Program-made: the position numbers and the translations under genes
The notes under the pieces: generated by a model
What the model was told of the DNA's origin: nothing
The model's database searches: none
The model's input: only the letters and a program-made list of their open reading frames with translations
Assembly: GCA_013166775.1 (NCBI GenBank)
Contig: JABLTJ010000020.1
Span: 1-62,988, forward strand
DNA from: Promethearchaeati archaeon
GTDB taxonomy: Archaea; Asgardarchaeota; Heimdallarchaeia; Heimdallarchaeales; Heimdallarchaeaceae
DNA length: 62,988 nucleotides
Direction of reading: 5' to 3'
Part shown: piece by piece, positions 14,753-19,858 of the stretch
How positions within the stretch are numbered: position 1 is the stretch's first letter
How the letters are laid out: each line of letters begins with the position of its first letter

Positions 14753-14998
14753 CTATGCATTTTCATTAAGGCTGGATATTAGTTTCCAGATAAAACCTGT
14801 TGATGACCACTCTCGTTCTACAACACCTTGTTCAACAAGTTCTTTTCCTGCTAAAATAACATCACCACCAGATGTACACCCTGCGCATATATCAGGGAAT
14901 AAATCTCGCATAGCCATTATTTCTTTTGTTGTTGCAGGATTTTGTTTCTTCAGAATAGCGAGTATGCATTCAACATTTCGTTCCTTAAAGCTGCTCAT
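14753..14998 (-). CDS. Small winged-helix-like protein with a CxxC motif
   Basis: ILAILKK..PATTKEI...LVEQGVVEREW...FIWKL pattern; CAGC; 12 bp upstream of sufS. Confidence 0.65.
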   Translation of the reverse strand: MSSFKERNVECILAILKKQNPATTKEIMAMRDLFPDICAGCTSGGDVILAGKELVEQGVVEREWSSTGFIWKLISSLNENA

Positions 14999-15062: not shown

Positions 15063-15992
15063 CTAACTTGAAAGAAAATCTGACAAAGATTTTTGTCCTT
15101 TCAATTTAAGAGGAACTTCAGAGAATGAGATCGAATGGCCAATCATTTTTGAGAGATTTGAGACATAGTAACTATTATTAACTCTAGTTATTGCAAGTTT
15201 TCCTTTTATCCCTACGAGCTCTCCAGTAATCTGCCTGGTTTTTTCGATTTCATTTAAAATTGGGTTTACATCGAGAGAAGAGATTTCTCCATAGTATGAA
15301 GAAAGCTCTGTTTCTTTGTACAATAATTCAGATTCTTGTAAATCATAATCCGTTTTCTCTAAATAAGTAACAACATTGTCTTTGAGTTCCCTGAATTCAG
15401 GTAGTGATCTAGAAAGATTATAGTTCAATTTCCGTGCTTTTTGTGATTTTCTGATAGTCTGAGGAATATTTAGCACTTGTGATATTTCTTTCTCGATTTT
15501 TCTTGCTTCTAAACCATTTTTTGCTTTGAATATCTCAATAGCAACATCAGCACCTTGATTCATCCAACGTTTTAATGGATTGAAAGAAACACCAACCTTT
15601 ACATTATTCGCAATTAACGCCAAATAAACTGAGCAAGGATGTGAAACACAATATTCATAAGCTTCCGAATTTTGAGCACAATTTCCATATGGTTTCGAAG
15701 CGTCACAAAGCAAAAAACACTTTTCAAAATCGTTTTGTTCGCAAGTATAACATCGTACGTATTGTTCGTTAGTGAAATTAGAACAGAGATAGTATTTCTC
15801 CTTGTTAATTGAATGCCCTATGCAGATTTTTTCTTTAAACATTGTTACATTAAATGAATCTTTAGCTTGGAGAGGTTTTTTGTATACTTCTTCAGGATTT
15901 TCTTTAAGGTTGCGTAAAAAGAGAAAAACATATGGAGGAGTAAAAGGATTCCATTTGATAGCCATTAGGTGTTCTTTCAATAGTATCTCCAC
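15063..15992 (-). CDS. DUF2797 family protein with C-terminal PIP-box
   Basis: Cys-rich N-half, VYLA...KVGVS...RWMNQGA (GIY-YIG-like), G.L.GIKG; ends QKSLSDF. Confidence 0.8.
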   Translation of the reverse strand: MEILLKEHLMAIKWNPFTPPYVFLFLRNLKENPEEVYKKPLQAKDSFNVTMFKEKICIGHSINKEKYYLCSNFTNEQYVRCYTCEQNDFEKCFLLCDASKPYGNCAQNSEAYEYCVSHPCSVYLALIANNVKVGVSFNPLKRWMNQGADVAIEIFKAKNGLEARKIEKEISQVLNIPQTIRKSQKARKLNYNLSRSLPEFRELKDNVVTYLEKTDYDLQESELLYKETELSSYYGEISSLDVNPILNEIEKTRQITGELVGIKGKLAITRVNNSYYVSNLSKMIGHSISFSEVPLKLKGQKSLSDFLSS

Positions 15993-17544: not shown

Positions 17545-17627
17545 TGGAGCCAAGACGGGGATTTGAACCCCGGAGGCAAACGCCAGTGGTTTTCGAGACC
17601 ACCACCTTACCGCTTGGTTATCTTGGC
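17545..17627 (-). tRNA. tRNA-Ser(CGA), long variable arm, encoded CCA
   Basis: GCCAAGA...GTGGT-CT-CGA-AA-ACCAC...CGGGG TTCAAAT CCCCG TCTTGGC T CCA. Confidence 0.95.
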
Positions 17628-17717: not shown

Positions 17718-18320
17718 TTAAAGTCTAATAAACTGCCTACTTCCACAATTAGAACAACCCTTAACAGAGCATTCTGAGCAAAAGAAAGATCCACATTTTG
17801 AGCATTTACTATTTGCTTGCTTGCTACAGTTTATACATTTTTTCATTGAGAGACGATTGCGAACTCTGTACAGGATATAGACTGCTCCTCCTACTCCCGC
17901 TATTCCTGCCATAACCTCTGCAATGATAATGAAGATTCTTCCAATGTCTACATTGATACCGGGCGTACTATCTTCAACGATTCTAACAATTTTGGTATTA
18001 CGATATTCGTAATATCTAATGGTTCCATTTTCTAGCACAACTTCCCAATTAATGTTTTTAGTCTCTTGTTTCTTCATCTCCAGAAGCTCATCGACAACGT
18101 TATGGTTTAATTCATTGTAGTTTACTTTTACTCTGAATGGATCATCATCAGAATATGTTATTGAATATCTTCCATCAATATATCGAACAAAGGATATGTC
18201 TATTATATCATCATACTCTACACCGTTAAGATTGTCATAAGCTTGAGTACTAGACAAAGCATAAAAAAAGAGCACTATAAAAACGAAGAGCAGAGAAAAT
18301 CTGCTTAGTAATTTAGCCAT
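17718..18320 (-). CDS. Single-pass membrane protein: degenerate FKBP-like ectodomain, TM, C-terminal 8-Cys zinc finger
   Basis: Signal peptide MAKLLSRFSLLFVFIVLFFYALSSTQA; TM IFIIIAEVMAGIAGVGGAVYILY; CINC-x6-CSKC-x4-CSEC-x4-CSNC; paralog of the next gene. Confidence 0.75.
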   Translation of the reverse strand: MAKLLSRFSLLFVFIVLFFYALSSTQAYDNLNGVEYDDIIDISFVRYIDGRYSITYSDDDPFRVKVNYNELNHNVVDELLEMKKQETKNINWEVVLENGTIRYYEYRNTKIVRIVEDSTPGINVDIGRIFIIIAEVMAGIAGVGGAVYILYRVRNRLSMKKCINCSKQANSKCSKCGSFFCSECSVKGCSNCGSRQFIRL

Positions 18321-18370
18321 CTTGAGATATGCTGTAGGGAAATTTAAAAGAATTTCGAAGAGGGATAACA

Positions 18371-19024
18371 TTAGGTCTTAAAGCGTATCATAGTTCTACT
18401 TTTGCAATACGGACACCCATTTGAATAACATCTCTCACAGAAGACTCTGCCACATTTCCTACAAGTACCTACTGCAAGTGTTTTACAAACGGTACACCTT
18501 TTACCAAAAATCCTTGGATAGAATTTGTAACCTCCATATATTAGAAAAATAAAAGCTGTCGCACCTAGCAAACCTAGAACCACTCTGAGAAAATAGAAAC
18601 CAAATGAACCAGGAGTTAACCCACCATTTTCAATTTCTGTAATATGAACACCGTTAATTTCGAATATAGTTAAATCATCGTAGTAAAGAGTAAGATTTGC
18701 ATAAATACCGTATTTAGGATCATATTCTGAGAAACCATCTTCTTTAGCAACGATTAAATTTCTCACTTCCCCTAGTTTCATTCCTATAATCTCATTATAC
18801 AAACCTATTGGCTTAATAACGTCTATTGCGACTTGACCTTTAAAGGGGGCTTCTTCTGTGAAAACCTCAACTTGTACTGCACTTACTGTTAATCTATAAC
18901 CTAGAGAAATTAAATCATTTTTTTTAACAACTGGAAGCGCTGCAGAATTGTTTAAGCTAACCTGTATACAAGAGATAGTGAATATGAATATAAAAAAATA
19001 AGAGATTTTGATGGATTTTCTCAT
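18371..19024 (-). CDS. Single-pass membrane protein: SlyD/FKBP-like ectodomain, TM, C-terminal FYVE-like 8-Cys zinc finger
   Basis: Start MRKSIK (19024); VKKNDLISLGY...GLYNEIIGMKLGEVRNLIV...GFSEYDP matches the FKBP/SlyD pattern; CTVC...CRKCGRVFCERC...CPYC. Confidence 0.8.
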   Translation of the reverse strand: MRKSIKISYFFIFIFTISCIQVSLNNSAALPVVKKNDLISLGYRLTVSAVQVEVFTEEAPFKGQVAIDVIKPIGLYNEIIGMKLGEVRNLIVAKEDGFSEYDPKYGIYANLTLYYDDLTIFEINGVHITEIENGGLTPGSFGFYFLRVVLGLLGATAFIFLIYGGYKFYPRIFGKRCTVCKTLAVGTCRKCGRVFCERCYSNGCPYCKSRTMIRFKT

Positions 19025-19083
19025 CGAAATTAGAAAACATTGGTAATAATAAAAAGATATCGAAATAAGAAAAATGAGTAAAT

Positions 19084-19190
19084 TGGCGCCCGTGCCGGGA
19101 TTTGAACCCGGGTCGAAGGAGTTCAGCACATGTTACGAAAGTAACACGTTTGACAGTCCCCCATCATAGGCCGAACTAAACTACACGAGC
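19084..19190 (-). tRNA. tRNA-Asp(GTC) with a 29-nt intron (19122..19150) at position 37/38, encoded CCA
   Basis: GCTCGTG...GGGGA CT GTC A [intron] C TCCTT CGAC CCGGG TTCAAAT CCCGG CACGGGC G CCA; the intron forms an ACGTGTTAC/GTAACATGT hairpin and a relaxed BHB. Confidence 0.93.
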
Positions 19191-19288
19191 ACTTATCTTG
19201 TGATATTTTTTTTAGCTGTCAACCTCATTTAAACTTGTCGTTTTGTATAATCCAATGTTGAGTTAAGATTGCGTTTTCGGAATTCAGA

Positions 19289-19858
19289 TTACTCCAAACC
19301 TACTTCCACTCTTCTTTTCTCAACAGCTTTCATGAGTTCCTTAGCAAAAGTAGCAAAAGCTTCTTCTACTTTTTCTCCGGTTTTAGCTGAAGTTATAAAG
19401 AAAGAATCTTCCGAGAGATTTAATTCATTAGCTATTGCTTTAATATTTTCGTTTTCCAGTTCTACTTGTTCTTTAAGATCAGCTTTGTTACCAATTAGGA
19501 AATAAATAACGTCTTCTTCCACACCTTCTAGACCCTTTTTCCATGCTTTAACTGAAGAGAGGGTGTTACTTCTAGTTAAATCGAAGACCAAAAAACATCC
19601 TCTAGCTCCACGATAAAATTTTTCTCTTACGGAAGCAAAACGTTCTTGTCCCCCAATATCACTAATTAAGAATAAAACTTCATCTTTACCAACAAAAAGT
19701 TGCTTGCTTAGAATATCTACACCAATTGTCATTAGATAAGATGCTTGGAATCTATTGTGAACAAATCGTGTTATTAATGAGCTTTTGCCCACGCCAGGAT
19801 CGCCAAGTAAAACTATCTTGAAGATATATTTTTTCCCTGGAACCTCTTCTTCTGTCAT
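19289..19858 (-). CDS. Rab-like small GTPase (Ras superfamily)
   Basis: G1 GDPGVGKS, TIGVD, DIGGQERF, FYRGA, LVFDLT, NKAD, SAKTG; no C-terminal Cys. Confidence 0.95.
   Translation of the reverse strand: MTEEEVPGKKYIFKIVLLGDPGVGKSSLITRFVHNRFQASYLMTIGVDILSKQLFVGKDEVLFLISDIGGQERFASVREKFYRGARGCFLVFDLTRSNTLSSVKAWKKGLEGVEEDVIYFLIGNKADLKEQVELENENIKAIANELNLSEDSFFITSAKTGEKVEEAFATFAKELMKAVEKRRVEVGLE

Follow-up and report, generated by a model that had tools for sequence, protein, structure and literature searches.

Architecture of the FKBP-finger pair

The analyzed stretch of DNA (the window) comprises 62,988 nucleotides (nt) from a contig of a Promethearchaeati archaeon in the family Heimdallarchaeaceae (GenBank assembly GCA_013166775.1, contig JABLTJ010000020.1), and it encodes two co-oriented paralogs, A and B, each with a signal segment, an FKBP-like ectodomain, one transmembrane (TM) helix and a basic cytoplasmic finger built of four CxxC pairs (Table 1). 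The reading that we favor, though we put it slightly below an even chance, is that A and B are a surface foldase or chaperone pair which the basic finger docks, probably at the ribosome-translocon. On this evidence A and B are best described as membrane-anchored FKBP foldases; by motif neither is a FYVE protein, and the pair stands outside any conserved GTPase module. This layout had been described in an original prediction made from the letters of the window, and every element of it is present; a further proposal, that a FYVE-like finger recruits the Rab-like GTPase encoded next door, fared poorly, as set out below. The conserved type-I architecture, an FKBP ectodomain joined to a two-zinc finger, was indeed not found described in the literature on Asgard B-boxes, on FKBP/TM/zinc-finger combinations or on the translocon, within a partial coverage of that literature. 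Also new here are the GTPase linkage test, the promoter-like motifs and the basic-tail variant.

Hydropathy gives each protein an N-terminal hydrophobic segment and one TM helix (residues 4-25 and 141-166 in A; 1-28 and from about 122 in B), and the segment and charge pattern, with an acidic ectodomain and a basic tail, suggests a type-I topology in which the FKBP domain faces outward and the finger inward. The two paralogs align end to end (24% identity, E 1e-14). As predicted, the FKBP fold is clear in A and eroded in B. The ectodomain of A matches Pfam FKBP_C at E 0.002, and its AlphaFold model (mean predicted local distance difference test score, pLDDT, 82), in which the FKBP-domain match spans residues 28-126, superimposes on T. 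thermophilus SlyD with Z 12.9 and a root-mean-square deviation (rmsd) of 1.5 Å over 84 residues, on FKBP2 with Z 12.1, on M. jannaschii FKBP26 with Z 11.5, and on human FKBP11 with Z 11.4, the last over residues 28-174 with the TM helix included (rmsd 9.8). B lacks a Pfam FKBP match and its flap region is deleted, yet it aligns with the family, in which FKBP_C is matched by 38 of the 48 aligned members (best E 8.7e-21).

The insert-in-flap domain is absent from A, whose FKBP domain of about 95 residues matches SlyD delta-IF constructs end to end. By alignment, the equivalents of FKBP12 Y26, F36, D37, W59, Y82 and F99 in A would be Y, F, T, L, F and Y, so that the hydrophobic pocket appears to be retained with Thr and Phe at the D37 and Y82 positions; the pocket of B appears more altered, with loss of the flap, and the canonical set (Y, F-D, F, Y, F) seems to be kept in many single-copy relatives. 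A probably has diminished prolyl isomerase activity, and for B any such activity is doubtful. The nearest solved sequences to the ectodomain include archaeal FKBPs (E 6e-5 with a near-family profile, 1e-12 with a wide profile), and the insertion typical of archaeal FKBPs is retained in some family members; on these grounds the simplest reading is that the ectodomain descended from an archaeal SlyD-type protein after loss of the insert-in-flap domain. The closest solved ectodomain sequences, M. jannaschii FKBP26 (3prb) and M. thermolithotrophicus FKBP (1ix5), belong to soluble, cytoplasmic proteins that possess the insert, whereas A lacks it and is predicted to be exported, anchored in the membrane and equipped with a zinc-finger tail.

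The cytoplasmic finger

Both fingers share the spacing C-x2-C-x7-C-x2-C-x4-C-x2-C-x4-C-x2-C. The net tail charge is +12 in A and +10 in B, and every one of the 48 aligned members has a basic tail (+2 to +15, mean +9), the ectodomains being mostly acidic. A profile built from 44 fingers retrieved PML B-box1 first (E 7.7e-4) and the ANCHR B-box next (E 0.007), with FYVE chains at E 0.75 or worse; Pfam matches among the 48 members comprised the ANCHR-like B-box in 18 and zf-B_box in 8, all under the curated cut-off. In structural comparison of the finger model (pLDDT 89), RING, U-box, B-box and ZZ domains tied at Z 4.0-4.5. The B-box-1 spacing (C-x2-C-x7-12-C-x2-C-x4-C-x2-C) is present, with a spacer of 7 residues in 81 of 103 fingers and of 12 in 14 of 103, and the comparison with B-box type 1 and ANCHR-like domains (PML B1, 2mvw; ZFYVE19 B-box, 2d8v) extends to an Ala before the second pair and to the cross-brace fold. 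However, the last two ligands are invariant Cys (C204 and C207 of A) in a RING-like CPxC motif, not the two His of B-box type 1. Across the 48 aligned members ligands 3, 4, 7 and 8 never vary, Ser, His or Asp frequently replaces Cys at ligand 6, and occasional changes are seen at ligands 1 and 2, a pattern to be expected of interleaved sites and one that speaks against a nested double ribbon. The finger is not the generic double zinc ribbon that the original prediction had named as a possible objection; it is a minimal, B-box-like cross-brace finger with two predicted zinc sites. Prokaryotic B-boxes have been linked to the folding, stability and proteolysis of membrane proteins in a passage of PMC4506424 that cites Burroughs et al.

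The predicted likeness to FYVE holds in one respect, the CRxCGxVFCxxC core being present, but this core is generic, and spacing, profile and fold all point to the B-box/RING/ZZ group. FYVE and FYVE-related fingers (EEA1, rabphilin) have in common with the family eight Cys in four pairs and a CxxCGxxFCxxC core; the family's spacings of 7 and 4 are, in contrast, far shorter than those of FYVE. FYVE domains that bind phosphatidylinositol 3-phosphate (PI3P) are defined by WxxD, R(R/K)HHCR and R(V/I)C motifs (PMC3017826), and among the 103 fingers WxxD and [RK][RK]HH occur in none and RVC in 2, which extends to all 103 the lack of WxxD and RRHH originally noted for one finger. Against Pfam FYVE, A scores E 0.69, and the 25 families listed for the 48 members at E<=0.1 do not include FYVE. 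No FYVE chain stands among the 50 structural matches listed for the finger, although all of these have Z 4.5 or less and the fold itself is not thereby excluded.

Eight-ligand fingers akin to those of the family also occur in other Asgard genomes as stand-alone proteins of 50-54 amino acids (aa) and as a TM-finger-TM miniprotein (L127:1870-2193; L144:2026-2178; L145:1985-2149; G048:C66; G051:C11).

Family range and exchange of tails

At E<=1e-15 the family profile matched 63 of 83 Heimdallarchaeia genomes, a few of the matches being finger-less variants: 29 of 30 genomes in the source family, 12 of 12 and 1 of 1 in two other families of the order, and 19 of 22 in Hodarchaeales. With the queries used, the family was not found in f3 (3 genomes) or f7 (12 genomes). 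Among 300 genomes of the phylum, strong full-length finger matches came solely from the class Heimdallarchaeia, and a few family members are labeled Hermodarchaeota or Promethearchaeota. In trees built on 82-98 columns, where shallow nodes alone are resolved, the A/B duplication is restricted to the source family. The two genes stand side by side in genera g1, g2 and g5, and three genomes carry a third copy in tandem; the locus holds a single copy in genera g3 and g4 and in most other families. In the third copy (loci L005, L007 and L009, in the same genus as the window) the ectodomain is of B type and the finger of A type, a chimera whose sequence suggests recombination between the paralogs.

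The TM helix and finger are also found on a 270-aa protein of many genomes of the source family, behind a signal segment and a ResA/TlpA-like thioredoxin domain with an intact CxxC (loci L052-L058 and L160; e.g., L052:5528-6340); the gene was not found in the source genome, which is 89% complete. The thioredoxin-fusion tails are nested in the B clade (support 96/80), and B matches the fusion at E 5e-28. In Hodarchaeales, sister paralogs keep the FKBP domain and TM helix and carry instead a basic, Cys-free tail of 63-73 aa with a poly-Arg end in 4 of 5; their ectodomains cluster among the finger-bearing ones with moderate support, which implies that the common feature of the tails is basic charge and not the zinc fold. 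For this tail we found no solved relative and no sequence match to FKBP11. Judged by sequence and tree position, the finger shifts between extracytoplasmic folding catalysts and is replaceable by another basic tail. The Cys-free tails (L153:1213-1971, L154:2341-3060, L155:1578-2330, L156:2498-3256 and L157:2346-3071) have a conserved LKELREL helix and, in 4 of 5, a C-terminal VKFRRRR.

A model for surface folding helpers with a basic docking tag

These features allow a model in which A and B would be type-I membrane proteins that position an FKBP-fold folding helper outside the membrane, where proteins bound for secretion or for the cell surface emerge. The domain of A may act as a weak prolyl isomerase or holdase and that of B probably by binding only, so that a chaperone role is what we would infer for the pair. 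The cytoplasmic finger would be a positively charged docking tag, which most likely holds the protein at the ribosome-SecY translocon in the manner of the basic C-terminal helix of FKBP11. That human protein (FKBP19; PDB 9n9j/9ygy; PMC12804085) likewise has a signal peptide, an FKBP domain, one TM helix and a basic cytosolic tail. FKBP11 has its basic C-terminal helix next to the translocon, at uL22 and rRNA H24, and works as an adaptor, since the catalytic site is buried (PMC12804085); catalysis is doubtful in both FKBP11 and the archaeal pair. The FKBP11 tail is a helix, whereas that of A and B is an eight-Cys finger, and the ectodomains of A and B are nearer in sequence to archaeal FKBPs; the likeness in layout is even closer between FKBP11 and the Hodarchaeales Cys-free-tail paralogs. 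We also count in favor of a docking tag the thioredoxin fusion, as a second extracytoplasmic folding catalyst furnished with the same TM helix and finger.

Several points weigh against this model. No conserved neighbor at the loci across families points to secretion, and the docking partner, whether ribosome or translocon, stays hypothetical. The positive-inside rule alone also yields basic tails, and in several relatives the tail is lost altogether, while some FKBP-TM proteins carry only a short basic stub. The conserved surface residues (A184, G186, G192, G203 and P205), together with the invariant ligands, exceed what a plain charge tag needs. Further, FKBP11 ranks near the bottom of the 60 FKBP matches listed for the profile (E 2e-5, where an archaeal FKBP reaches 1e-12), so that its likeness to A and B is best taken as analogy.

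Heimdallarchaeia are the archaea closest to eukaryotes, and the family bears on how the folding and quality-control apparatus of the endoplasmic reticulum (ER) arose, as a small, testable candidate for translocon-coupled folding before the ER. A broader proposal, which we advance tentatively and regard as rather doubtful, is that Heimdallarchaeia couple FKBP and thioredoxin catalysts to the translocon or to membrane ubiquitination through a modular TM helix and B-box/RING-like finger, in what would be the prokaryotic equivalent of folding in the ER lumen and of ER-associated quality control. What gives the family its relevance is that its exported FKBPs and thioredoxins, anchored in the membrane, carry a basic cytoplasmic tag that can be exchanged; it does not speak for an ancestral FYVE-Rab effector system, which would have been the more striking claim.

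Alternative explanations

The strongest rival to the docking tag, though itself unlikely, is membrane quality control, in which the FKBP or thioredoxin domain would catch misfolded surface proteins and the finger would recruit the ubiquitin system, as a minimal E3 ligase or as a cofactor of TM-RING proteins; a link to ubiquitin machinery had been offered as an alternative in the original prediction. It would agree with the placing of RING and U-box domains among the nearest solved folds of the finger (tied with B-box and ZZ), with the RING-like CPxC(K) end, in which K or R follows the last Cys in 59 of 103 fingers, and with the presence of ubiquitin-conjugating (E2) family genes in 83 of 83 genomes of the class; in the source genome there are two catalytic E2s, one with a JAB-like protease as its neighbor, and about 12 of the RING-H2 proteins have TM segments. 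The layout of ectodomain, TM helix and cytoplasmic cross-brace finger is likewise that of type-I TM RING E3 ligases such as RNF43/ZNRF3. However, the finger lacks the Trp-bearing central helix of RING domains, the linker between ligands 6 and 7 being 4-6 residues long (4 in 92 of 103) and Trp occurring in 0 of 103 fingers, whereas the true RING-H2 proteins of the source genome mostly carry a Trp/hydrophobic E2-contact helix. Nor is the finger among the Pfam RING matches of the source genome; 19 of the 48 aligned members lack one zinc ligand, and a Cys-free tail can replace the finger. A complex prediction for the finger with the best-scoring E2 returned a score of 0.00, which is no answer and counts as evidence neither way. 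Less likely again is that the finger is an oligomerization module, which would gather A, B and the thioredoxin-fusion protein at the surface as a folding complex, with an A-B heterodimer and no fixed cytoplasmic partner. B-boxes self-associate, the best profile match is PML B-box1, and the PML B1 multimer structure (6imq) is among the matches; the adjacency of A and B in three genera and the third tandem copies also fit. On the other hand, most other families and genera g3 and g4 have one copy at the locus, the strongly basic surface (+10 to +12) disfavors self-association, and each paralog has a promoter-like motif of its own. More improbable still is a signalling receptor pair, which would report envelope stress to a cytoplasmic partner or to nucleic acid, possibly after intramembrane proteolysis frees the finger. 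The type-I layout, the degenerate and probably non-catalytic ectodomain of B, the conserved basic finger, which could bind nucleic acid, and an AN1-finger/M50 protease encoded two genes away in one other lineage are consistent with such a role. However, no regulator or protease is a conserved neighbor across families, and the fusion to an enzyme-like thioredoxin with intact CxxC fits a catalyst better than a sensor.

The originally proposed receptor, with a FYVE-like finger that recruits the neighboring Rab-like GTPase, is in our estimate the least probable. The GTPase is encoded upstream across tRNA-Asp, as had been stated (19858-19289; Pfam Ras E 1.5e-43); it has Rab-like motifs and no C-terminal, prenylatable Cys, and, lacking a lipid anchor, it would need a membrane receptor. 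(The literature on prenylation of Asgard Rab-like proteins yielded nothing, within partial coverage.) It lies directly across the tRNA from A in 18 of the 22 other genomes of the genus that have the locus, while a small GTPase stands within 500 nt of 1.7% of the source genome's open reading frames (ORFs). However, the whole block (RNase E/G, tRNAs, HIT, GalK, amidohydrolase, UDG and PGM) is syntenic at genus level, and the linkage is lost with distance: genes are inserted between the GTPase and A, at the tRNA, in 4 genomes of the genus and in both of the next, and in other genera the two lie 3.4 kb, 7 kb, 31 kb and 288 kb apart, the last two values coming from single-contig genomes. At E<=1e-60 the GTPase has no ortholog outside the source family, where the FKBP-finger protein persists. 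At 31 loci outside that family, with flanks mostly of 5-7 kb and some shorter, the nearest small GTPase is 4.0 kb away, in one case, and none occurs at 7 thioredoxin-finger loci. The tRNA-Asp is inverted relative to A in 11 related loci, the GTPase usually travels with the HIT gene, and the FYVE motifs WxxD and RRHH are absent from all 103 fingers. The FKBP-finger protein is far older than the GTPase ortholog. The adjacency is ordinary synteny; physical contact with some GTPase is not forbidden, and there is no reason to expect it. The original prediction had named a lack of conserved linkage to the GTPase among the points that would refute it, and the linkage is not conserved; with its decay, the family-limited ortholog and the separate promoter-like motifs, a finger-GTPase system is not sustained.

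Locus organization

Read in the direction of transcription, the order on the minus strand is the HIT gene, the Ras-family GTPase, tRNA-Asp, A, B, tRNA-Ser and the RNase E/G gene. A motif of TTCGAWA plus a T-run, 23-24 nt before the start, is kept in 27 A genes and 26 B-type genes, and none was found before the GTPase, the thioredoxin fusion or the single-copy relatives. Since A and B each have such a motif and the GTPase does not, the sequence suggests that the three are transcribed separately. The motif defines no regulon (8 matches in the genome against 5 expected, of which 4 alone precede an ORF), and a scan of the locus for bacterial promoters and terminators gave chance level. Longer ORF starts for A (19129, GTG) and B (18371, ATG) are unlikely, as the 19129 start overlaps tRNA-Asp and the conserved motif precedes the short starts.

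Table 1. Features of the A/B locus in the window
Feature	Coordinates	Strand	Remarks
Paralog A, 217 aa	18371..19024	-	Signal segment, FKBP domain, TM helix, basic B-box-like finger
Paralog B, 200 aa	17718..18320	-	Layout as in A; FKBP domain degenerate, flap region deleted
FKBP-fold ectodomain of A	18650..18934	-	Residues ~31-125; without insert-in-flap domain
TM helix of A	18527..18604	-	Residues ~141-166 by hydropathy; helix 141-173 in AlphaFold model
Eight-Cys cross-brace finger of A	18404..18496	-	C177-C207
Eight-Cys finger of B	17745..17837	-	C162-C192
Promoter-like motif of A	19049..19064	-	TTCGATA, then T-run TATA-like box; 24 nt before A start; putative promoter
Promoter-like motif of B	18344..18359	-	TTCGAAATTCTTTTAA; 23 nt before B start; putative promoter
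tRNA-Asp(GUC)	19087..19190	-	Intron-containing; neighbor, not a system component
Rab-like small GTPase	19289..19858	-	No prenylation Cys; local neighbor
tRNA-Ser(CGA)	17545..17627	-	Downstream flank

The tRNA-Asp(GUC), whose intron is about 30 nt long, was missed by ARAGORN; in relatives this tRNA has the opposite orientation, at times lacks the intron, and serves as an insertion site for genes (an island of about 6 kb in locus L070).

Elsewhere in the source genome, 15 RING-H2 proteins score above the Pfam cut-off, at least 2 of them with a signal-ectodomain-TM-RING layout like that of RNF43/ZNRF3 (contigs C35 (64028-66169, minus strand), C107 (86842-88275, minus strand), C53, C102, C75, C97, C76 and others). 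For the part of a membrane E3 ligase, the TM RING-H2 proteins are more promising candidates than A and B. A ubiquitin-system cluster at L124:1480-2760 (contig C102) pairs a catalytic E2 with a JAB/MPN-like protease, and a TM-RING gene follows after about 3 kb.

In the interval that separates the RNase E/G gene from a class-V aminotransferase gene, the window also encodes a conserved 81-aa CxxC protein with no Pfam family (14753-14998) and a DUF2797 protein (15063-15992), in an order that is kept across the source family.

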